The notes beneath the pieces are model-generated. The model was not told the DNA's origin. It worked only from the letters and a program-made list of their open reading frames with translations, and did no database searches. A stretch of DNA of 64,000 nucleotides from Candidatus Magasanikiibacteriota bacterium (lineage in GTDB: Bacteria; Patescibacteriota; Patescibacteriia; Magasanikbacterales; UBA922), in contig JACPSK010000005.1 of NCBI GenBank assembly GCA_016193335.1, positions 13,308-77,307 of the forward strand. The letters run 5' to 3'. Within the stretch, counting starts at the first letter, position 1. Each line of letters begins with the position of its first letter. The position numbers and the translations under genes were made by a program. Shown here piece by piece: positions 10,372-63,991 of the stretch.

Positions 10372-10761
10372 ATTTGCGAGATGATACTACAGAATTTTAC
10401 ACTCTTTTGCAAGAGAAAACAAAAAACCCCTTTTAAAGGGTCTTTTATGATCCCACCATTGGGTAACAATATCGTACATCCCTATGTACTAGGTGGGTCA
10501 CCGCAATCTCGGCCCGCGAGCCGAAACAATATTGGCGTCCCTATGTTACGATATGTAGAATGAGATATGTCACCCTACAGCAAGGATCATGAGGAAGTAT
10601 AGAAACACTTGCAGATATTGTCAACGAAAAGTTAAGAACATTTTATCCACTTTTTTTCCAGATCCTCTGATTACTTAGCAATGAAAGAGAAATAATCAAA
10701 GGGAGTGAGAGATGCGAGAGGGGGAATTTTGGCTTCTCTCTATGGGGGGGGTTCAGGAGGC

Positions 10762-10977
10762 TCAGTCGTCCAGACCGTAGCGGTCGAGCATGGCCTGCTC
10801 GATCTGCCGCCGCATGGCGGGGGGCATGCGGCCCAGGCCATCGCCGATGCGCAGGTCGCGAACGACCAGAAGAGCATCCGCATGGCGGCGGCGCACCACA
10901 CGCGCGGCGGGCATGCCCGTGCCCTCCGGAAGCGTGGTGTCGGTGCTGAGGCCATCGCTCTTGCTGTCTGCAGTCAT
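10762..10977 (-). CDS. hypothetical small protein (71 aa) in a GC-rich islet
   Basis: AGGA 6 nt upstream of the ATG; the high GC makes this ORF call uncertain. Confidence 0.2.
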   Translation of the reverse strand: MTADSKSDGLSTDTTLPEGTGMPAARVVRRRHADALLVVRDLRIGDGLGRMPPAMRRQIEQAMLDRYGLDD

Positions 10978-11175
10978 GTTTGTCCTTGTTGCTACCCTGT
11001 AATCAGAGGAAGCGCTGCCCCCAGGGTTGAGGCGAGCCACACATACAGCTCTTGGTGTCCATGTGGCTCGCCTCAAATATTCCATGATTTCGCATCTCTT
11101 AAAATTGAGAAAGAACGGGTGTAATCCCCTCTCCGCGATCCTCCAAAGCGCGCGGGCAAAGGACTATAATAAAAA

Positions 11176-49380: not shown

Positions 49381-50151
49381 TTATTTTTCTTTATTTCCTA
49401 ATGCCTCGGCCGACGCCTCACGATACGCGCAATAGTCACAGCTCTGCTCTGCTTTCGGGATCTGAGGAGCATCTAGAACTTTCTTTATCTTCTTCAATAT
49501 CGGTTCAACCCAAGCGTCGTCACCCTCATAAGGAATCAAAGTAACCTCAAACTCGAGCCTGGCGTCAAAAGCTTCTTTGTCTGCTATGCCGTTGCAATAT
49601 ACGAAATATCCGATATCGCCGACATCAAGACCATTCGCGCGCAAAAGCCATTGATAAATTTCCATCTGCCGCTTGTATCCGTCCTGCCAGTCTTTATCGA
49701 GTTCAGTAATCTTTTCATTCTTGCTGGTTGATTTGTAATCAACGACTATATATTCTTTGGTAGCCACGCTCATCCAAAGATCGTCGATGGCGCCCGTTAT
49801 AATAAAATTGTTGGGTTCATGAAAAAATTGAACGCCCTTAAAATTTTCTCTCCACATATCAAGACTTTCATGGCCCGCAGGAATAGCATCTATGCCATAG
49901 CGTTTTTGCAAAGGATGCTGAACGCCTTTTATCCGATGAGAATCAAATTCTTGTTTCAAAAGAGAATCCACGGCCGAATTGAGACTAAAAGGAAAACCCG
50001 GAGGCCTCCCTACCCCCAAACGCCGATCCATATAAAAACATCTCGGGCATTGTATGAACAAATCTATTTTTGAGCGGGATAATTTGAAAGGAGCACTGTC
50101 GGACGGACGATATATATTACGCGTTCTCTTAGCTGTGTAATACTCCGACAT
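49381..50151 (-). CDS. PD-(D/E)xK nuclease-superfamily protein (Cas4/RecB-like fold with a C-terminal Cys cluster)
   Basis: N-terminal CPRCFY; VVDYKST; C-terminal CDYC. Confidence 0.45.
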   Translation of the reverse strand: MSEYYTAKRTRNIYRPSDSAPFKLSRSKIDLFIQCPRCFYMDRRLGVGRPPGFPFSLNSAVDSLLKQEFDSHRIKGVQHPLQKRYGIDAIPAGHESLDMWRENFKGVQFFHEPNNFIITGAIDDLWMSVATKEYIVVDYKSTSKNEKITELDKDWQDGYKRQMEIYQWLLRANGLDVGDIGYFVYCNGIADKEAFDARLEFEVTLIPYEGDDAWVEPILKKIKKVLDAPQIPKAEQSCDYCAYREASAEALGNKEK

Positions 50152-50152
50152 A

Positions 50153-50455
50153 TTATTTTTTGATGGAAACTTTTTCTTGCTTCAAAATTTTTTTCGCGAT
50201 AATAAACACGGCAAAAGCCAAAATAATAAAATGGAGAAAATCGGCCAAAAAAGCTCCCCATTTGAGAGCTATAGGGCCTATACGCAGGGTGGCTTCTCTC
50301 CAGCCTGCGCTGGAAAGAGGAATGACAAAGGGCATGAACACATTGTCCACCAAAGATTTGACCACCGAATTGCTGGCTGCCCCCATAATAAAAGCAAGAG
50401 CAAGCTGTATGATATTGTATTCTTTTAGAAAAGAAAAAAAATCGCGGAAAAACAT
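50153..50455 (-). CDS. mscL: large-conductance mechanosensitive channel
   Basis: 100 aa; FKEFAMRGNVIDLAVGVIIG-type N-terminus. Confidence 0.75.
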   Translation of the reverse strand: MFFRDFFSFLKEYNIIQLALAFIMGAASNSVVKSLVDNVFMPFVIPLSSAGWREATLRIGPIALKWGAFLADFLHFIILAFAVFIIAKKILKQEKVSIKK

Positions 50456-50572: not shown

Positions 50573-50797
50573 TTACTCTTTCTTTACTCTCAGAAAGAGC
50601 AGCCAAACCAGGGGCCAGGCGAAAATACAAAAAAGGAACAGGGGTAAGATTGAGAGAGACACTTCCGGATCCTCGTGTGTCCCGTCGAGGATCTGATTAG
50701 TGCATCTCTCGAAGATACTCCAGCCCAGACTCACCCAAAGAGCCGCGAACACAAAAAAAATGAATTCCGAATGAGACACCGAAGCCCCCCCGCTCAC
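50573..50797 (-). CDS. small membrane protein
   Basis: ORF only. Confidence 0.2.
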   Translation of the reverse strand: MSGGASVSHSEFIFFVFAALWVSLGWSIFERCTNQILDGTHEDPEVSLSILPLFLFCIFAWPLVWLLFLRVKKE

Positions 50798-50966
50798 ATT
50801 GATACGAATCCAGTGTACCTAGAAAAAACAGAGAAGTCCAGCTGTGAGTCATAAAACCAGAACTCATCTCAAAAATAATTATGAAGTCATTAACAAGACA
50901 GTTTCTGCATATATGGACTTGGTCCTTAAAATCTTAAAAAGATAATGCGAAGACGGAAGATAGAAG

Positions 50967-50995
50967 GGTTGACAAAGTCCTTTTTTGTGATATAG
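50967..50995 (+). promoter_or_regulatory. sigma70-like promoter reading into the GC-rich islet
   Basis: TTGACA, a 16-nt spacer, then TATAGT. Confidence 0.4.
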
Positions 50996-51101
50996 TTATT
51001 CCTTATCTTTTACAATTCACTTCCGATGCGCTCTATGGGAGGGAGAAATTTCTTCACAGAGAGTGCAGTGGAATCAAATTGTTTTTCAAGAATCTGCGGG
51101 T

Positions 51102-51656
51102 ATGATACACCCGTACCATATGGAGTGGCTAAGAGTCACAAGGAGAGGATCCGTGAAAATTCTTGAATGGAAGTATAATTCATTGTATATCCTTGACTTG
51201 AAGATCTTTTATCGATCTCCACTTGGTTTTTGGAACTCGGAGATCTTTGGACAGAATGTGGTTGTCTTTCTCACCTTGTCTGTGGCTTCCATTGGCGCCT
51301 TTTTCGTGGGGGGCTTCATGGCAGATCAGTTCCTCAAGGCTGATGAATACAAAAGAGCGGTCGAGGCCTGGACTGAGGCTAATCGGAAGGCAGTTGCGAT
51401 GCCATCCTACCTCAAAGCGGAGGTCGGCTCATACGACTTCCACATGGCCAACTGCTCCTTAGTGAGGGACAGGTGTGAGGCCGTGACGCGTAATTCCTGC
51501 GCGTCGGCCAAGGATGAGAGAGAGAAGCTCCTTATTCTGGAGTTTCGCCTTGCGGACTGTGGCGGGTTCGACGGCGAGCATAAAATCCTTCTTGTGTACT
51601 CCGACCACACATGCCTGTTTGTCGAGAGCTCCCAGGAGAGCTGTCCGGGCGGGTGA
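51102..51656 (+). CDS. hypothetical single-TM protein in the GC-rich islet; possibly frameshifted against the overlapping ORF 51514-51855
   Basis: ORF with a TM segment VVVFLTLSVASIGAFFVGGF; a second coding-like frame continues to 51855. Confidence 0.3.
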   Translation: MIHPYHMEWLRVTRRGSVKILEWKYNSLYILDLKIFYRSPLGFWNSEIFGQNVVVFLTLSVASIGAFFVGGFMADQFLKADEYKRAVEAWTEANRKAVAMPSYLKAEVGSYDFHMANCSLVRDRCEAVTRNSCASAKDEREKLLILEFRLADCGGFDGEHKILLVYSDHTCLFVESSQESCPGG

Positions 51657-51924
51657 AGCCAAGTGTGCCACAGGATGTGGCAGGGCAAATGGGGAATGTT
51701 TTATCCAGGCTCGACTCTTTGACCTCTGCGAGGTCTATGCCAAGGGCGGAGGCAAGAGGGCCATGGTCGCCCTATACGCCGAGAAGGTGGCAAAAGATCC
51801 CACATGGGGCGAGGCAGACCGTCGTCTGATCCTCGAACTCGGCCAAACCGAGTGATAGTTAGGAGGGCAGGCCGCGCGCCCGATCCGGCTTGTGATCCTA
51901 TTCTAAGATCGCAGAAAGCATCGG

Positions 51925-51968
51925 GAAAAGACAAAAACGACTCAAAATTCTTGAGTCGTTTTTGTCTG
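51925..51968 (+). terminator. strong rho-independent terminator
   Basis: gacaaaaacgactcaa-aattc-ttgagtcgtttttgtc, a 16-bp stem. Confidence 0.6.
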
Positions 51969-52197
51969 CAATAAATTCCAGTCTATCAAGACTACGAGCC
52001 GACGCCGTTAATGGTGTATTCGTCACCTCTAGTTTAGCAGAGTATCACCTCATAAAGTGTACTGTACATGATCCGTATCTTGACAAAACCCAAAAAATAG
52101 GGTGTACTGATACATTCTTTATTCCTCTGCGGTTGGTCCGTTCAAGCAGAATGGATCTACGAACAAGGGAATAGAACCGAACACAAGGGGGTGGGAC

Positions 52198-53382
52198 ATG
52201 GGACGCAAATCTCGAGAGAAAAGAGCAAAGCGGCGCTTGGACACGGCCAATGGCCTTGAATGGCTCTTGCGCTACTGGGAAGCGCTTCAGCGCTTTGACC
52301 GGGCCAACGCCCTTGCGGAGGAACGTTGGGGGCGTGGGATTCCAGCCCCGCGCTTTGGTCCGCAAACCTGCTGGCAGGACTTCCGTTCGTATCTCTTGGC
52401 TTCTCGTCCGGGAGATACTTACGACTCCGAACGTTTTGGCGGCATCATCCGCGGACGTAGAGATTACGTAAAGCACGCCAGCATTGCCACGTCTTTGCAT
52501 TCCTGGGCGAGCAACTCACGCAGAGTGTACCAGGTTGACGAAGATCTGGCGCTTCTTCTCAGCGCCACGTCTTTTGCCACACTGCGCATGGAAGATCTGC
52601 GATTTCCCTTTGACGGATTCGCGATCACCGTTGACAGCCCAGTGAGCTACGCCGGATCTTCCTTCAACACTTTTGTATGCGGGAAGGTTGTTGACGCGAG
52701 CGGGAAGACGGTGAAAGTGTTCACGGCCGTTTCGGCGCACATCTCAGAGTACACCGAGCCTTTCAGTAGTCTGAGTTCCGCTTTGCTCAGAACGGCCGAA
52801 AATGGCACAAGGGTTGAATTTGAGCGGCTGGCGCGGGATATCAGTCGGCTTACCCAGAAGCATAGCACGCGCTCGCATGAAGCGCTTTGCTGGCCGATCT
52901 CCGAAGAGCCCGGCTGTACTGTGGAAGACTGCATTAAAAAAACGTTTGAGATGCAGGCGGACAGCGGGGAAGCTGAATTGGTGAAACATCTTTCCGTATT
53001 CACCACGGTCGCCAGACTCGTCTTTGGCGTGCCGGTGTATTTGCAGTCGCTGGAGCCTGCGAAGCGAGACGCTTCAGGCTTCAAGAAGCTTCCTCGCGAA
53101 GCGGTTTTGCCTGACCCGAACGTGGTCACGCGTGAAGCCGAAGTTTGCAAGATCTCTTCAACCCGGGTGCTCAGCCCGGCTGAGCGGGAGATCCTGCGCC
53201 GCTATCGCAGAAACCCGTCGGGTGAAATTGGCGCTCATTTCCGCTGCGGACATTGGCGCAGGCCTCCGGGCAAGGGTGCTGATCCGGATGCCCCCAAAAC
53301 CGTCTGGGTTTCTCCGACCATCGTGCGACAGGATCGTCTGCCCGATGGTACGGCAGCGCCAGGAGCCAAACAAATTTTGTAA
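52198..53382 (+). CDS. hypothetical 394-aa protein (GC-rich, basic N-terminus, no recognisable domain)
   Basis: strong SD AAGGGGGTG 6 nt upstream of the ATG; clean long ORF; codon usage differs from its neighbours. Confidence 0.5.
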   Translation: MGRKSREKRAKRRLDTANGLEWLLRYWEALQRFDRANALAEERWGRGIPAPRFGPQTCWQDFRSYLLASRPGDTYDSERFGGIIRGRRDYVKHASIATSLHSWASNSRRVYQVDEDLALLLSATSFATLRMEDLRFPFDGFAITVDSPVSYAGSSFNTFVCGKVVDASGKTVKVFTAVSAHISEYTEPFSSLSSALLRTAENGTRVEFERLARDISRLTQKHSTRSHEALCWPISEEPGCTVEDCIKKTFEMQADSGEAELVKHLSVFTTVARLVFGVPVYLQSLEPAKRDASGFKKLPREAVLPDPNVVTREAEVCKISSTRVLSPAEREILRRYRRNPSGEIGAHFRCGHWRRPPGKGADPDAPKTVWVSPTIVRQDRLPDGTAAPGAKQIL

Positions 53383-53476
53383 AGGAGCGGCCGATTGAAT
53401 TCACAACAGATCGGCCAAAACAAAAAAACGTCAGACATGGCGTTTTTTTGTTTCAAAAATCTGGAGCTTACTGTCT

Positions 53477-55198
53477 TCACAACAAAAGCATTCGCGCCAT
53501 CCGCAATTCATCATAGGTATACGCGCCGTTGAAATGCTGAAACACGGGCGATAATTTGTCTGTATCACATTCACGAAACGCGGCGTGAATTTCATCAAGC
53601 CCTCGAGATATCGAAGGAGTCAAAAGATTTTCCAAACGAGTACGGTCAATTTTGCCTTTCAAAACTAATATTTCCACATGACTCAAAATAGTACCTGGTT
53701 TCAAATTTCTTGCTTTCGCGATCTCCTCAACAGACAAGCCTTCGTTCCATAATTCAAGGGTTTTTTCTTGAGTGTTCGTTTCTGCTTTTTTAGGGGAAAG
53801 GCCTTGCCCCATATCTGATTCTTTTCTGAGGTTTCGCATAATTCCCCCACAACGAATAATAAAATGTTTCGTCAATTCTTCTGCTTCGTCCTTGGACATC
53901 CGCGCATAGTTCCCTTCAGTTTTCTCTGAGTCGGCGCGGAATATTCTGTCCTGGTCCAAAACATCCGGGTGAACCTCAAAAGTCTGATCATTCCACCCCA
54001 ATATATGCAAACCGGAAAGACGCCTGACTCGGGATAAAGCCACATAACCTTGGCCATACTCAAAAACCTGAGACAGATCCATTACAGCTTCATCCAAACT
54101 CATCCCTTGGCTCTTGTGCACGGTAATGGCCCAGGCCAAACGCAGAGGCACTTGAGTGATACTTGCTCTCAAACGGCCATTCTCTTCGAGATTCCAATCC
54201 ATGGGTTCCACCTCAATAAGGCGGCCATCCCTGGAACGCACCAAGGGCAGACGGGTCTCCTTATGAAAAGCCTCCACAGTGCCGAGCGTGCCGTTTGAAA
54301 AACCGGCGCTGGGATTATTTTTCGTAAACATGACAGAAGCGTTTATTTTTAGAGCGAGGCGCTCCGGAGAAATACAGCCCCGTTTGAGGGCTTCCACCGC
54401 ATGTTCAGAACCATGTGAACTCATGGCATAGATCTGAGCAAGACCGGGAAGCGTGGAAAGCATCTTGTCATTCATCCGATCCACGTCCGCGTTATGAGAA
54501 AACAATTTAGGCACATCTTTGGGCGCTTGGCTCTGAACAATTTTCCTCGATTGTATATGCCGCAAATGCTCCGGACCGAAAACATGCGCTCTCACAGCGG
54601 AAAGCACGGAAAGATAAGACGCATCATCCTGGCGATATTGTTCAGAGAGATAACAAATTTTAGGCCCCAGCGCCTTCCATGCTTGAGATCCGTAGGCAAA
54701 ACGGAGGGCTGGCGTATCAAGAAGAACCGCTCGAGCCTGCGTCGCCTCAATTTCTCTTTTAAGAACCGGGGGTAACTGAAAAAAATCACCCACGAGTACG
54801 GTTTGCAATCCACCAAAAGGAAAATCATTTTGTTTTACCGCACGGCAAACCGCGTCTACCATGTCTAGAACTCCGGGGGCGAGCATGGACACCTCGTCTA
54901 CAATCAAAACTTTGGAACGCCGAATTCTTCTTTCAATCTGCTGTTTCTCCGCGATCTTTTTGATTTCGTGTTTGCTGAGTTTGTCTTTTATACCGATTCC
55001 GCTCCACGAATGTATCGTCATGCCCCCAACATGCGTGGCCGCGATGCCGGTGGACGCGGTGATAGACGGATCGATGTCATGTTCTCGGAGCCAGTCAATG
55101 TAGGCGTTCACCGTGTGGGTTTTCCCTGAACCTGGTTCTCCGGTAAGAAAAACATTGGTCCCTGTTTTGAGAATGTGAAGGGCAAGGGATTGTTTCAT
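53477..55198 (-). CDS. PIF1/RecD-family ATP-dependent DNA helicase with a C-terminal HTH region
   Basis: Walker A GEPGSGKTHT; LIVDEVSM; C-terminal LSVEEIAKARNL HTH. Confidence 0.7.
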   Translation of the reverse strand: MKQSLALHILKTGTNVFLTGEPGSGKTHTVNAYIDWLREHDIDPSITASTGIAATHVGGMTIHSWSGIGIKDKLSKHEIKKIAEKQQIERRIRRSKVLIVDEVSMLAPGVLDMVDAVCRAVKQNDFPFGGLQTVLVGDFFQLPPVLKREIEATQARAVLLDTPALRFAYGSQAWKALGPKICYLSEQYRQDDASYLSVLSAVRAHVFGPEHLRHIQSRKIVQSQAPKDVPKLFSHNADVDRMNDKMLSTLPGLAQIYAMSSHGSEHAVEALKRGCISPERLALKINASVMFTKNNPSAGFSNGTLGTVEAFHKETRLPLVRSRDGRLIEVEPMDWNLEENGRLRASITQVPLRLAWAITVHKSQGMSLDEAVMDLSQVFEYGQGYVALSRVRRLSGLHILGWNDQTFEVHPDVLDQDRIFRADSEKTEGNYARMSKDEAEELTKHFIIRCGGIMRNLRKESDMGQGLSPKKAETNTQEKTLELWNEGLSVEEIAKARNLKPGTILSHVEILVLKGKIDRTRLENLLTPSISRGLDEIHAAFRECDTDKLSPVFQHFNGAYTYDELRMARMLLL

Positions 55199-55294: not shown

Positions 55295-55840
55295 CTAAAC
55301 GCCCAATCCATACCTCTTGAGTTCCGCCCGCCGCGGGCGGTAATCCGGAATCGTTTCTGCGACAAGATTCCAAAATTGCTGAGAATGATTTAAATGTTCA
55401 AGATGGCATAGCTCATGCACAACAACATAATCAGCGAGTTCAAGGGGCAAAAACACCAAACGATAATGAAAATTTAAATTTTTTTCTCCAGAACAACTCC
55501 CCCATCTGGTTTTCATGTTCTTTATTGACACGCGACGGTAGAAAACCGCGTATAGCGGCGCATAAATTTTCAATCGTTCCATCACAAATTTTTTTGCCCG
55601 TCCGCGAGCGGCCAAAAAATGTTCTTGCTTCATATCTTCTGGCCTCAACCAATCCGCTCGTCTACGTTTTATTTCTTCAGTCCTGGATCGAATCCATTCG
55701 GAATGAGATTCCACAAAAGAATTGATAACATCTCGGCCGACTTTCATAGGAGCGACCACAAGCACCGCGTCGCGACATAGAACAATAGAAATGCGTTTAG
55801 CGCGGCGGGAACGTCGAAGCGTATAAAATAACTTGGACAT
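55295..55840 (-). CDS. YgjP/DUF45-family metal-dependent hydrolase (M48-like)
   Basis: RWGSCS...YVVVHELCHLEHLNHS. Confidence 0.65.
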   Translation of the reverse strand: MSKLFYTLRRSRRAKRISIVLCRDAVLVVAPMKVGRDVINSFVESHSEWIRSRTEEIKRRRADWLRPEDMKQEHFLAARGRAKKFVMERLKIYAPLYAVFYRRVSIKNMKTRWGSCSGEKNLNFHYRLVFLPLELADYVVVHELCHLEHLNHSQQFWNLVAETIPDYRPRRAELKRYGLGV

Positions 55841-60127: not shown

Positions 60128-63100
60128 CTACCAAAGGGTCCCATAATGACGATCCAAAAACTCGTCATTTTTATTCCAGATTCTAAGGAATTGGGGAGAC
60201 ATGAGACCTATGCTTTTTCTAAGCGACTGGGCAAAATCTTTCATGACAAAAGAGAAATGCTGCCACAAAACCGCGTCGGCGATGCGCCCGGAATCTGGCG
60301 AAGGAGCATAGCTCGTGGAGCCTCCGCAGGCGCTCGCGTTGAAATTGGCACAGGCCGAATCATTGGGATATGAACCCGGACATCCGGCGCTTTTACAGCT
60401 TTGGCAATCATAACACACAGAAGACATACCGTTCGTGCCAGGACTGCTACCGCAGTCCGCGGGACAGCTCGCGGTAGTTTCGCTGCTGCCACAACTACCG
60501 TCACCGCAGGACCCGGAGCTTGAACCTGAACAAGAATTATTCGAATCTTTCCAGCAATAGCCGTTGCACCAAGAGTATCCATGAGAAGTGCAGTCTGACG
60601 ATGAATAACAGTAGTTATAATTCGTTGCGCAGGTTCCGCTCGTTGATCCCCCGCAATCCGAAGGACAAGAACTATACGATTCAGAACTTTCGCAAGTGCC
60701 ATTACTGTTACAGGAATTCGAACCAGTTCCTCCTGATGAACAATCCGAAGGACAACTGGACGAAGTCTCAGTATTTTCACAAGTTCCATTGCTATTGCAT
60801 GAGCCTGAACTCGAATAACAGCTTACCGGACAGCCGGAATTGTCAAAATTACAACCATTCGGGCAAATACTGTAACTGCAAGTGTATGAATTCGTGTAAT
60901 TGTTGTACTGGGTAGATGGACAAGATGTGGTACTTGAAGATTTACAATCTTGCGGACAGGATCCGGTGCTTTCACCGGCCTCACAAGATCCATTGTAGTT
61001 GCAGGCAGTACTTGCAGTGCTGGGACATTTAGCTGCAGTGTAATTATCTTTGTTGAGATAACTCGGATAATTGTAATCACAGCGTTGTTCCGTATTGAGT
61101 TTGCAGTAGCGGGTTCCTTTGGAATCCCAACTGCTGTAGGCAAAGCCCGGGCAGGAGCTGGCGTCTCCGGGGTATTCTTTAGCTGAATTGCAATCGGCCG
61201 GACAAGAAGTGGCAGTTTCATTTGATCCGCACCACTTATCCCCACAAGTGCTTTGGGTATTGCTGACACAGCCGGTTGGACAGCCATTGGCATCCCATTG
61301 ACACCAGGTGCCTGTAGAGCTTCCTTTGCAAGCACTGCAAGAGCCGGAATTGGCGCAGGTGGTTCCATCTTTCACACAGCTGTCAGCGGTAGAATCATAG
61401 TGCCAACCGGTCATGCCTTGGCATTTGCCACTGGTGCCAGTGCCAGAAGTCCAACAGCCTACCGGACAACCGGAATTGTCAAAATTGCAGCCACTAGGAC
61501 AAGCCGTATAATTACAAGCGAAAGAACCGGACGCGCTATTGAATCCATTATTAGGACAGCTCGTGGCTGTCTTGCAGTCTGCCGGACAACTGGCAGGAGT
61601 CTCGCCGTCTTTGCATACGTTATCTCCGCAATTGGAAGTCACGGAGCCATTACAATCCGCGGGACAACTGTTGTTTGCTTTCTCGGTGCTAGAACATTGT
61701 TTATCTCCGCACACATCAGCGGCCGGAACGAAGCAGCGCCCATTTTCACACGTATAAGTGCTACCAAGTTTTTTACAATCATAGCCTTTCGGGTCATCAG
61801 ATCCGATCACCACTTTCGTGCCTTGGCATATATATTCCACTACAAGAGCCCCATTGCAATAATCGTCATAAGAACCGGTCTTATCCTTTGCCGTGCCCTT
61901 GACTTTATAATCTTTGGCGTCCGTATCAGAACAGGTTCCTGCCAAATCTCCGCAGTCCACCGGACAATTACTCTTGGTTTCGTCCACAGAGTTACAAATG
62001 CCGTCTCCGCAATACTTGCCATCCTTTGGCTTGCACTTTTCGGCGCAGCCATTGGCGGTAAAGACACAGCCATTTGGACAGAGCCCATAATTGCAATCAT
62101 ATTGTTTGTCAGAATACCCATTCGCCGTGTTGGGAACACAGGAAACCGGAGCAATTTTGCAATCCTGGGAGCAAGTTTCAGAAGTTTCTCCATTATCGCA
62201 AACACCATTGTAATTGCAGGTAGAACCGGTGGGGCTCGGACAATTGGCCGCGGTATAATTATCTTTGTTGAGATAACTCGGATAATTGTAATCACAGCGT
62301 TGTTCCGTATTGAGTTTGCAGTAGCGAGTTCCTTTGGAATCCCAACTGCTGTAGGCAAAGCCCGGGCAGGAGCTGGCGTCTCCGGGGTATTCTTTGCCAC
62401 AGTCGGCAGGACAGGAATCTTTGGTTTCAGAACTATTGCAAACGGCGTCGCCGCAGGTATCTTTTACACAACGCCCTGCTCCGGAATCCCAGTACGAAGG
62501 AGCTTCACAAGCAGGAAGCTTGCCCGAACAGTCTGGTATGCCGAAAATCTGCCAATTGGTATCATCGCCCGCCCCTGAAGGCCAACGCATCAAGGATTTC
62601 AGGACAGCGCGGCATTTTGCTTCAGCGGCTGCTATATGGTTGGTATATTCAGCGTCTGTACGATTCAAAATGTAAGACGTTTCAGATCCATCACTAAACT
62701 TCCACGTATAACTCTTCCATTTGGAGGTCTCCGGCTTAGTGTCATAAACCACCCCAAACTTGCTCTGACATTCGGCAGATATCCCTTTGCCGCTTCCAGG
62801 GCCGTACTGCTTGCAATATGAATATGCCTCGTCTTTTGTGTACACAGCATGTCCGTCTGAAAAAGTGTGGTAGACCGCCGGTTTCAGTTCATTGACAATA
62901 CAAGAACCGGATCGAGTACATGATTTTTCATCCACATAAAATTCTCTCCTGTATCCTTGTTTGCAAGAAGTATCTCCGAGAGGTGGGCATTGAAATTGTT
63001 CAATACAGGTATTGAGGCCGCAGGGATCCTTGGCAGGATCAGAAGGCAAGGGCTTCTCCCCGGGAGCGCAAACACGTGGCATAACCATGGGGCAAATCAA

Positions 63101-63991
63101 AGGTTTGCACTCGGCATATTCAACACAACCATCAACCCGTTTAAACGTGTCACGTGTCATGCCGGCTTGACAAGGTAAGGGCTTAGCCGGACAACGATCC
63201 TTAAAAGGAACGCAAGAGCCCGGGAGCCAGCAACCGTTTTGGTCTTGTGAAGGTTCACGATAATAGCCCACCGGACAGGCTTCCGGGTCGTAAGAGGGAC
63301 AAATTACTTTATTAACGGCTACACAGAGGGTTTTGATGTCATCCCAATACATGCCCTCGCCGCATCTTGTTCGCTCTTCTTGAATGCAACGACGGGATGA
63401 AAAATCAAAATAAAAACCCGGTTGGCAATCTACAAAATCCTTGGGCATACAATCTTGAATACGGCTGTTCCAGACCCAAGAAGCCGGACATATATGCCCC
63501 GCATCTTTATAACATTCTTTGGGGTACACCAACCTGCCCGTTGTCTTATCCAATACGCCTGAACAATTGTTTCTTGCGTCGGATTCACAGATGCCTCTTT
63601 CTTCATTCCATCGCAAACCTCCTGAACAAGATCTAAATCTTTCGGGTGGGCGGTAATACGGATCTTGCACGCAAGAATTGGCGGCTCCATCCCAATATTG
63701 TCCTTCCCCGCAATTTCCTATAAAGGTGTTGGAAGCCACGCAAGCGCGAACTGCCGGATCCCAATAATTCGGAGGTGAACAGACCGGATGTTCATCTTCC
63801 TGCGTGTACCATGAACAAGACGGCTCGCTTCGATGCTCGGCACAATAATTTTGACAGGCTTCTGGCGTATCGCATTTGCCAGCCAAAGGATTATCCCGTT
63901 TGAAACGCGTCTGTTCAGACTCTATCCTGTTTCGTTCTCTGCGCAAGTCATCCGCCAGTCGTTCTTTTTGATGACGCAAATCCTGATCCAA
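60128..63991 (-). CDS. giant Cys-rich secreted/surface protein; more than 1287 aa lie in this window and the ORF is 5'-truncated by the window edge
   Basis: the ORF runs open to the window end from a TTG pseudo-start; more than 10 CGDGxC...E...CPxDC modules; Ser/Gly/Cys-rich C-terminal region. Confidence 0.6.
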   Translation of the reverse strand: MDQDLRHQKERLADDLRRERNRIESEQTRFKRDNPLAGKCDTPEACQNYCAEHRSEPSCSWYTQEDEHPVCSPPNYWDPAVRACVASNTFIGNCGEGQYWDGAANSCVQDPYYRPPERFRSCSGGLRWNEERGICESDARNNCSGVLDKTTGRLVYPKECYKDAGHICPASWVWNSRIQDCMPKDFVDCQPGFYFDFSSRRCIQEERTRCGEGMYWDDIKTLCVAVNKVICPSYDPEACPVGYYREPSQDQNGCWLPGSCVPFKDRCPAKPLPCQAGMTRDTFKRVDGCVEYAECKPLICPMVMPRVCAPGEKPLPSDPAKDPCGLNTCIEQFQCPPLGDTSCKQGYRREFYVDEKSCTRSGSCIVNELKPAVYHTFSDGHAVYTKDEAYSYCKQYGPGSGKGISAECQSKFGVVYDTKPETSKWKSYTWKFSDGSETSYILNRTDAEYTNHIAAAEAKCRAVLKSLMRWPSGAGDDTNWQIFGIPDCSGKLPACEAPSYWDSGAGRCVKDTCGDAVCNSSETKDSCPADCGKEYPGDASSCPGFAYSSWDSKGTRYCKLNTEQRCDYNYPSYLNKDNYTAANCPSPTGSTCNYNGVCDNGETSETCSQDCKIAPVSCVPNTANGYSDKQYDCNYGLCPNGCVFTANGCAEKCKPKDGKYCGDGICNSVDETKSNCPVDCGDLAGTCSDTDAKDYKVKGTAKDKTGSYDDYCNGALVVEYICQGTKVVIGSDDPKGYDCKKLGSTYTCENGRCFVPAADVCGDKQCSSTEKANNSCPADCNGSVTSNCGDNVCKDGETPASCPADCKTATSCPNNGFNSASGSFACNYTACPSGCNFDNSGCPVGCWTSGTGTSGKCQGMTGWHYDSTADSCVKDGTTCANSGSCSACKGSSTGTWCQWDANGCPTGCVSNTQSTCGDKWCGSNETATSCPADCNSAKEYPGDASSCPGFAYSSWDSKGTRYCKLNTEQRCDYNYPSYLNKDNYTAAKCPSTASTACNYNGSCEAGESTGSCPQDCKSSSTTSCPSTQYNNYTNSYTCSYSICPNGCNFDNSGCPVSCYSSSGSCNSNGTCENTETSSSCPSDCSSGGTGSNSCNSNGTCESSESYSSCPSDCGGSTSGTCATNYNYCYSSSDCTSHGYSWCNGYCWKDSNNSCSGSSSGSCGDGSCGSSETTASCPADCGSSPGTNGMSSVCYDCQSCKSAGCPGSYPNDSACANFNASACGGSTSYAPSPDSGRIADAVLWQHFSFVMKDFAQSLRKSIGLMSPQFLRIWNKNDEFLDRHYGTLW

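Follow-up and report, generated by a model that had tools for sequence, protein, structure and literature searches.

A divergent member of the AcrVA2/FinQ family in a small, compositionally atypical islet of a Magasanikbacteria chromosome

To our knowledge, no bacterial protein other than AcrVA2, the anti-CRISPR encoded beside acrVA1 on a prophage of Moraxella bovoculi (322 aa; PDB 7CI1/7CI2; Pfam PF26125), has so far been shown to eliminate a specific mRNA upon recognising the nascent product of that mRNA. The same family includes FinQ, the IncI plasmid protein of fertility inhibition, whose motif is of the PHIRRGHWH type. An HxRxxH motif of AcrVA2 is required for the loss of Cas12a mRNA: the substitutions H286A, R288A and H291A abolish mRNA down-regulation while Cas12a binding is kept, and W79A and D89A weaken the activity (bioRxiv 10.1101/2022.11.29.518452). 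FinQ has been reported to lower the mRNA levels of F transfer genes, and the family thus acts beyond Cas12a; Marino et al. put the orthologues at about 1,800, some of them in metagenome-assembled genomes (MAGs), most homologues being found in genomes without Cas12a, and other targets were suggested (bioRxiv 10.1101/2022.11.29.518452). Here we describe a gene of this family, encoding a protein of 394 aa (positions 52198-53382, plus strand), in a GC-rich islet of a 64-kb stretch of Candidatus Magasanikiibacteriota DNA (contig JACPSK010000005.1), this whole stretch being called the window throughout. A previous examination of the letters, hereafter the sequence-only reading, had taken the protein for an orphan brought in recently from a high-GC donor. 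The account that we favour, and consider probable, is that of a two-gene, compositionally atypical chromosomal insert of Magasanikbacteria, made up of a probably decaying orphan and an old, vertically inherited AcrVA2/FinQ-family gene.

The family assignment comes from Pfam, profile-profile and fold matches. The PF26125 model ("AcrVA2-like") matches the 394-aa protein itself in a precomputed Pfam table, where unmarked entries have E <= 1e-5, as well as 13/13 of the homologues recovered by a word-index search, whose identity to it is 27-34% (E 1e-30 to 1e-43). The profile of this subfamily (14 sequences), which belongs mainly to the candidate phyla radiation (CPR), retrieves, with clustering at 50% identity, 945 clusters (E <= 1e-3), of which 433 reach E <= 1e-30. 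Two alignments were compared: A1, that of the 14-sequence CPR subfamily, and A2, that of nine AcrVA2/FinQ homologues (FinQ from an IncI plasmid, the AcrVA2 of a Shewanella phage, and homologues from Moraxella, Leptospira, Pasteurella, Erwinia and Lactobacillus phages and from Acinetobacter and Thermus plasmids). The latter was built because a single AcrVA2-like sequence, compared with A1 by hhalign, had given an uninformative probability of 7.8%. With A2, a probability of 91.3% and an E of 9.8e-7 were obtained over 242 columns, from residue 100 of the window protein to its C-terminus. The Shewanella member, from phage vB_SbaS_Y11, is annotated as AcrVA2 (PMC10846135), and it matches the sequence of the 7CI1 crystal structure at 1.5e-72 and the phage family phrog_6160 at 1e-58. 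This phage family is also matched weakly by 7/14 subfamily members; in contrast, the window protein alone stays below significance (E 0.064, residues 240-378) and the CPR subfamily was not found on viral contigs.

Fold searches pointed, with weak scores, to the same family. An AlphaFold model of the protein (pLDDT 74, pTM 0.76) gave, among Foldseek matches in the PDB with probability > 0.8, only AcrVA2 chains, the top three being from 7ci2 and 7ci1, and a search of BFVD gave three uncharacterised phage proteins at probability 1.00. Run against the sequences of the PDB, the subfamily profile returned nothing relevant, and no pairwise similarity to AcrVA2 was found by tblastn or phmmer, the relationship being detected by profile-profile and fold searches only. 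Taking into account the PF26125 match and the hhalign result, the protein is, on this comparative evidence, a divergent member of the AcrVA2/FinQ family (PF26125), and its description as an orphan has to be abandoned.

The residues on which AcrVA2 depends have counterparts in the window protein. The HFRCGHW patch that the sequence-only reading had pointed out near the C-terminus (residues 347-353, nt 53236-53256) is real, and it is the HxRxxH motif of AcrVA2: from the 7ci1 and hhalign alignments taken together, H347, R349 and H352 match H286, R288 and H291, and W103 and D114 match W79 and D89, with D114-E115-D116 aligned to D89-E90-E91 (the numbering of the 7ci1 chain is that of AcrVA2 plus one). 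H347, R349, H352 and W103 are invariant across A1, and H, R, H, W, G and W are invariant in A2. In the acidic patch DED (114-116), D116 alone is conserved within the subfamily, but D114 is not. A putative effector module, HFRCGHWRRPPGKGADPDAPKTVWVSPTIVRQDRL, extends from the patch over residues 347-381 (53236-53340, plus strand), with columns invariant in both A1 and A2. In the subfamily the motif is extended, almost without variation, to HxRxGHWRRPPGKGxDPxxPKTVWVxPTIVRxDxL; its AcrVA2 counterpart is HIRRGHWHGYWQGTGQAKEFRVRWQPAVFVN, in which the second W is equally spaced. The C-terminal domain of AcrVA2 has been described as loosely packed and flexible, and the C-terminal segment of the window protein, its most conserved part, may fold on a partner.

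Thus compared, the two proteins can be aligned from the W-x-(S/N)-x-x-x-Y-x-x-D-E-(D/E) stretch to the C-terminus, H-x-R-x-G-H-W being identical and W-x-P-x-x-V following about 17 residues on, and they share a predicted multi-domain alpha/beta architecture with a flexible C-terminal tail. Unlike AcrVA2, with its 322 aa, the 394-aa window protein has 100 unrelated N-terminal residues and an extended, invariant C-terminal motif (GHWRRPPGKGxDPxxPKTVWVxPTIVR), and its gene is chromosomal and syntenic in CPR, whereas AcrVA2 lies on a prophage. FinQ differs in being plasmid-borne in Enterobacteria, with 553/585 plasmid matches on conjugative plasmids, and pairwise comparison detects no similarity between it and the window protein.

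By analogy with AcrVA2, the most likely function would be a target-specific, translation-coupled down-regulation of mRNA. Recognition of a specific polypeptide, probably during its translation, would fall to the variable N-terminal and middle domains, and the invariant C-terminal module (HxRxGHW...W.P..V) would then trigger the loss of the mRNA encoding that polypeptide; the target need not be Cas12a. It is proposed that the second gene of the islet, a family member that is full-length and kept by selection, came into the lineage earlier than the divergence of the nearest sampled relative and has since then been inherited vertically at the same locus. The first gene would be a lineage-specific, membrane-anchored, Cys-rich orphan, frameshifted and probably decaying, and transcription would start from host-type signals.

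Several facts weigh against this account. The structural match is weak (Foldseek E ~1e-2, TM 0.17-0.25), the first ~100 residues of the protein do not align to AcrVA2, and the model has a pLDDT < 50 over the conserved C-terminal module. Local scans of the protein with Pfam-A, NCBIfam and PADLOC gave no match, the Pfam assignment resting on the precomputed table; the local Pfam-A evidently has no PF26125 model, since it fails even for homologues with a precomputed match. The gene is chromosomal and has no phage, plasmid, integrase or acr/aca partner, unlike the characterised members of the family. The mechanism of AcrVA2 is itself only partly known (bioRxiv 10.1101/2022.11.29.518452). Finally, a past horizontal origin of the insert is deduced from composition only, and an empty site was not found.

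A scan of one genome per GTDB species gave 22 family loci, 20 of them in Patescibacteria (Uhrbacteria, Saccharibacteria, Moraniibacteriota, Paceibacterota, Falkowbacteria, Magasanikbacteria and Parcubacteria) or in unclassified MAGs, and the other two in Bdellovibrionales; these members are nearly all chromosomal genes of Patescibacteria. No subfamily member was found in IMG/VR by a scan with the family alignment, and tblastn against INPHARED phages and PLSDB plasmids gave no match to the window protein. The neighbours are mostly housekeeping genes (NUDIX, ABC transporters, PheT, glycosyltransferases, translation factors). No recurrent neighbour gene was revealed by an all-against-all BLASTP of 118 neighbour ORFs (112 from the 22 loci and 6 from the window), and neither integrases nor transposases are among the 25 most frequent neighbour families listed. 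At two loci, L001 (12040-15847) and L039 (8001-11934), the AcrVA2-like gene stands 1-3 kb upstream of a pair formed by an N6/N4 DNA methylase and a ResIII helicase, which resembles a type III restriction-modification system and is the sole recurrent neighbour of defence type. The family is already widely catalogued, and the CPR clade is a moderately interesting lead rather than a new kind of system.

It might be supposed that the gene encodes a true anti-CRISPR against Cas12a, or that it is the remnant of an anti-defence locus from a prophage or plasmid, taking into account its family membership, its conserved effector residues and the restriction-like genes adjoining family members at L001 and L039. 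This we hold to be very improbable, because phage or plasmid genes are absent from its surroundings, IMG/VR, INPHARED and PLSDB give no match, the N-terminal part, which would bind the target, is unalignable with AcrVA2, the 64-kb window contains neither a CRISPR array nor any other hint of Cas12a, and most homologues occur in genomes without Cas12a according to Marino et al. (bioRxiv 10.1101/2022.11.29.518452).

The islet stands out by its composition. In 300-nt windows, GC is 0.55-0.62 from ~51.25 to 53.4 kb, vs 0.36-0.46 outside, with a dip to 0.45-0.48 at 51.85-52.3 kb, where a spacer separates the two islet genes; the remainder of the 64 kb has 0.41-0.49 in 2-kb windows, the backbone value being 0.44. 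The sequence-only reading had placed this jump at ~51.06-53.40 kb. The island is real, but phase-specific GC sets its onset at ~51.24 kb, that is, within the first ORF and not at 51.06 kb. Codon usage, for which the sequence-only reading had advised a check, is also atypical: GC at third codon positions (GC3) is 0.617 in the ORF 51063-51656 and 0.618 in the ORF 52198-53382, each with z = +4.1 with respect to the 56 other non-overlapping long ORFs of the window (mean 0.442, sd 0.042). The other two codon positions are raised as well (GC1 0.59, GC2 0.51).

Such an abrupt change of composition could be produced by a chimeric assembly, in which DNA from a GC-richer organism had been joined into a CPR contig. 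However, the window is reproduced at 99.96-100% identity in 8 contigs of 7 Logan runs (two projects) and in the NCBI MAG; four of the contigs span both islet borders entire, the borders are the same in at least 7 independent assemblies, and the few differences all lie outside the islet genes. In addition, a related genome (L040) has the same junction to the neighbouring helicase gene. The misassembly against which the sequence-only reading had advised checking is thereby excluded, and we give a chimera practically no credence. The window matches the MAG GCA_964404105.1 (contig CAYOIR010000005.1), and its helicase has a counterpart of 100% identity in a Candidatus Magasanikbacteria MAG, annotated there as a helix-turn-helix domain-containing protein.

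This helicase, Pif1-like and with a C-terminal HTH_40 (53477-55198, minus strand), is convergent to the 394-aa gene, and it behaves as a core gene, hence being a useful clock for dating the islet. At least 8000 helicase homologues have E <= 1e-30; among those listed, identity is ~55-60% and the named sources are all CPR/Patescibacteria. The nearest homologue, 78% identical, was found on the Logan contig L040, where the helicase gene is followed, convergently, by an ortholog of the AcrVA2-like gene with 70% aa identity over the 281 available residues. The GC of this ortholog is 0.56-0.63 vs 0.39-0.52 in the helicase part of the contig. Between the window and L040, dN is 0.141 and dS 1.43 for the helicase (GC3 0.475 / 0.476), while for the AcrVA2-like gene dN is 0.185 and dS 1.68 (GC3 0.62 / 0.66), with a dN/dS of ~0.11 in the codon alignment. 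The same site and a dS of 1.68 vs 1.43 therefore indicate that the gene predates the window/L040 split, has diverged alongside the helicase and is under purifying selection. A helicase homologue of 59% identity lies in a different neighbourhood, without the gene, and is uninformative. Two metagenome scans gave no helicase match and one distant relative (29%) of the 394-aa protein, and thus yielded neither an empty site nor a longer contig for the L040 lineage.

These data bear directly on the proposal of the sequence-only reading, a recent horizontal acquisition from a high-GC donor of a segment already wired for expression. In its favour are the GC3 of 0.62 vs 0.44 in both ORFs, the position of both genes on the strand opposite to all their neighbours, a first gene without homologues anywhere, and the host-type signals. 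On the other hand, the ortholog at the same convergent site in the nearest relative has a dS slightly above that of the helicase, no integrase, tRNA or convincing flanking repeat accompanies the islet, and an elevated GC is a trait of the whole family. We thus consider a recent acquisition very unlikely.

The GC of the family genes follows that of their hosts in part. Across 24 loci, gene GC = 0.25 + 0.55 x flank GC, with r = 0.73 and a crossing point of 0.56 (Wilcoxon p = 2e-4): where the host has a low GC, these genes exceed their flanks, whereas in high-GC hosts they fall slightly below them, and the gene is the GC-richer at 18/23 loci. GC3 is near the host value in several loci and far above it in the window, L020, L023 and L031. 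The sequence-only reading had named, as what would overturn it, a conserved host gene that happens to have a high GC. This holds in part: the family genes are pulled towards ~0.56 GC whatever the GC of the host, while a foreign origin in the deeper past is plausible.

It could be argued from this slope that this is an ordinary CPR gene, passed on vertically and at no time transferred into the lineage, its high GC being due to a composition rich in Arg, Gly, Pro and Ala together with selection on synonymous sites. The raised GC1 and GC2, the synteny, the purifying selection and the housekeeping neighbours agree with this possibility, and the GC3 of 0.62 and 0.66 in lineages that are dS > 1 apart would be poorly explained by neutral amelioration. 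However, the family is patchy and its neighbours are not conserved, as for a mobile single gene; the characterised relatives sit on phages and plasmids; the helicase homologue of 59% identity occurs elsewhere without the gene; and the upstream orphan, although unrelated, has an equal GC3 (0.617), pointing to a common foreign origin and not to a constraint specific to the protein. We regard this alternative as unlikely. Because the orphan shares that GC3, the composition argues that the 2-kb block as a whole is of common foreign origin. By a rough estimate, the GC3 excess would have outlasted ~0.7-0.8 synonymous substitutions per site and lineage, a poor fit to simple amelioration, and the anomaly could reflect either an ancient transfer from a very GC-rich donor or the maintenance of GC-rich codons.

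The first gene of the islet is a single-transmembrane, Cys-rich ORF of 167 aa in the gene call from the GTG at 51153 (51153-51656, plus strand), with a Shine-Dalgarno sequence AAGGAG (51139-51144) located 8 nt upstream. Other starts are available, the longest reading (51063-51656) having 197 aa and the NCBI call, from the ATG at 51120, 178 aa. As judged from the translation, the product has one hydrophobic helix, VVVFLTLSVASIGAFFVGGFMA, followed by the Cys-rich domain. The frame closes early at the TGA in 51654-51656, and the coding signal is carried on in the +1 frame at 51657-51855 (plus strand; ORF 51514-51855, 113 aa), as seen by the GC3 phase, which keeps to the frame of the 197-aa ORF up to that stop and has passed to that of the second ORF by ~51690. 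The frameshift into a second ORF, which the sequence-only reading had suspected, is thus located near 51.66-51.69 kb. No in-frame start codon exists in the +1 frame between 51657 and 51763. The frameshift is identical in every independent assembly, and a sequencing error of a single assembly was rejected for this reason; it follows that the shift either is programmed or reflects a genuine mutation, and the gene is probably a pseudogene, frameshifted and decaying. Its product has no match in Pfam, PHROG, PADLOC or the PDB, nor does the conceptually repaired 233-aa product match Pfam or the PDB. Among 5.8 billion proteins, the search for homologues returned only the protein itself, a hypothetical protein of Candidatus Magasanikbacteria. 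A 166-aa gene found upstream at a Saccharibacteria locus is unrelated to the upstream ORF of the window.

The expression signals described by the sequence-only reading were all found, with small corrections of position. A predicted sigma-70-type promoter with extended -10, TTGACA-N16-TG-TATAGT (50969-50996, plus strand), agrees with the consensus at 11/12 positions and would drive the first islet gene; it starts two bases away from the 50967 given previously. The 64-kb window contains 7 sites with >=11/12 positions, vs ~1.0 expected from Markov shuffles, and the same TTGACA..TGnTATAGT form occurs at 265(+) and 31519(-). The host therefore appears to use this promoter type, and the islet promoter is, by its sequence, host-like. 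The terminator seen earlier as a 16-bp stem at 51925-51968 is a perfect 17-bp hairpin at 51929-51967 (-25.6 kcal/mol, z = -6.3, with 0/200 shuffles as stable), and a second hairpin (53418-53453; -22.5 and -21.4 kcal/mol, z = -5.1 and -4.4) separates the 394-aa gene from the convergent helicase gene. Both hairpins are flanked by an A-tract and, opposite, by a T-tract, and could therefore terminate transcription in either direction.

The AcrVA2-like gene is preceded by the Shine-Dalgarno sequence AAGGGGG (52185-52191, plus strand), 6 nt 5' of its ATG at 52198. Further upstream (52052-52113, plus strand), a 13-nt direct repeat, ATAAAGTGTACTG and ATAGGGTGTACTG, whose copies are 45 nt apart, brackets a TTGACA at 52079, which is followed by N17 and TGTACT and flanked by two copies of GTGTACTG; the first copy of the 13-nt repeat contains the palindrome TGTACTGTACA. 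This region may be a weak, possibly regulated promoter and operator proper to the AcrVA2-like gene.

With its ~2.2 kb, the islet consists of two plus-strand genes among housekeeping genes of the minus strand. Every flanking gene lies on the minus strand; these include a PD-(D/E)XK nuclease (49381-50151) and MscL (50153-50455) before the islet and, beyond the helicase, a YgjP-like protein (55295-55840). The islet recalls classical genomic islands in its atypical GC and codon usage, its strand inversion and its orphan cargo, but it differs from them in its small size, in lacking an integrase, a tRNA and convincing direct repeats, and in being conserved in the nearest relative. No integrase, transposase or recombinase was found among the genes around it, and no tRNA at the islet, the tRNAs of the window being at 3-10 kb, ~40 kb distant. 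A 21-nt imperfect direct repeat (50739-50759 and 53408-53428) brackets the islet. It was rejected as a target-site duplication, being A-rich and matching at just 17/21 positions, and it is probably due to chance, because its right copy belongs to the terminator hairpin. When the islet was compared with Rfam, all that appeared were hairpin matches below threshold.

Elsewhere in the window, the only other strong compositional outlier is a 139-aa ORF at 10705-11124 (+), with GC 0.612 and GC3 0.594 (z = +3.6), which has no Pfam match; it may represent another small islet, or else a GC-rich non-coding element, beside the tRNA-Val and tRNA-Pro genes. Near it, a sub-threshold Rfam match to 6S RNA at 10446-10590 (-), with 28.4 bits vs a gathering score of 46.4 (E 0.0015), lies directly 3' of an 11/12 promoter of the same strand, TTGACA-N17-TATACT, starting at 10624 (-); it may be a divergent 6S RNA in this CPR genome. 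A very large ORF with a DUF5667 domain occupies 60128-63991 (-) and continues beyond, with >1287 aa in the window and 2003 aa in the MAG contig.

Our preferred account, an old and vertically inherited AcrVA2/FinQ-family gene beside a probably decaying orphan, carries a warning for similar loci: a sharp GC islet with a GC3 z > 4 is not evidence for recent transfer, the anomaly having persisted here through the saturation of synonymous sites. A bolder and doubtful possibility, though one worth stating, is that the clade with the motif GHWRRPPGKG...PKTVWV.PTIVR represents an AcrVA2/FinQ branch that has been domesticated on the chromosome, in ultra-small CPR bacteria and a few Bdellovibrionales, and whose hosts themselves, rather than a phage or plasmid, would use mRNA destruction triggered by nascent peptides and would actively maintain its synonymous GC-richness. 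If this were true, the purpose could be defence against a protein of an invader or post-transcriptional control of a host gene, and the GC3 of 0.62/0.66 in sequences dS > 1 apart, with a genome value of 0.44, would be a maintained property and not the fading trace of a transfer. The clade is large and, in the genome scan, almost exclusive to CPR, is invariant at all the residues with a known essential role, evolves under purifying selection and occupies a fixed chromosomal site without mobile-element context. The CPR clade is therefore a reasonable candidate for asking what role this family may have outside anti-CRISPR warfare.

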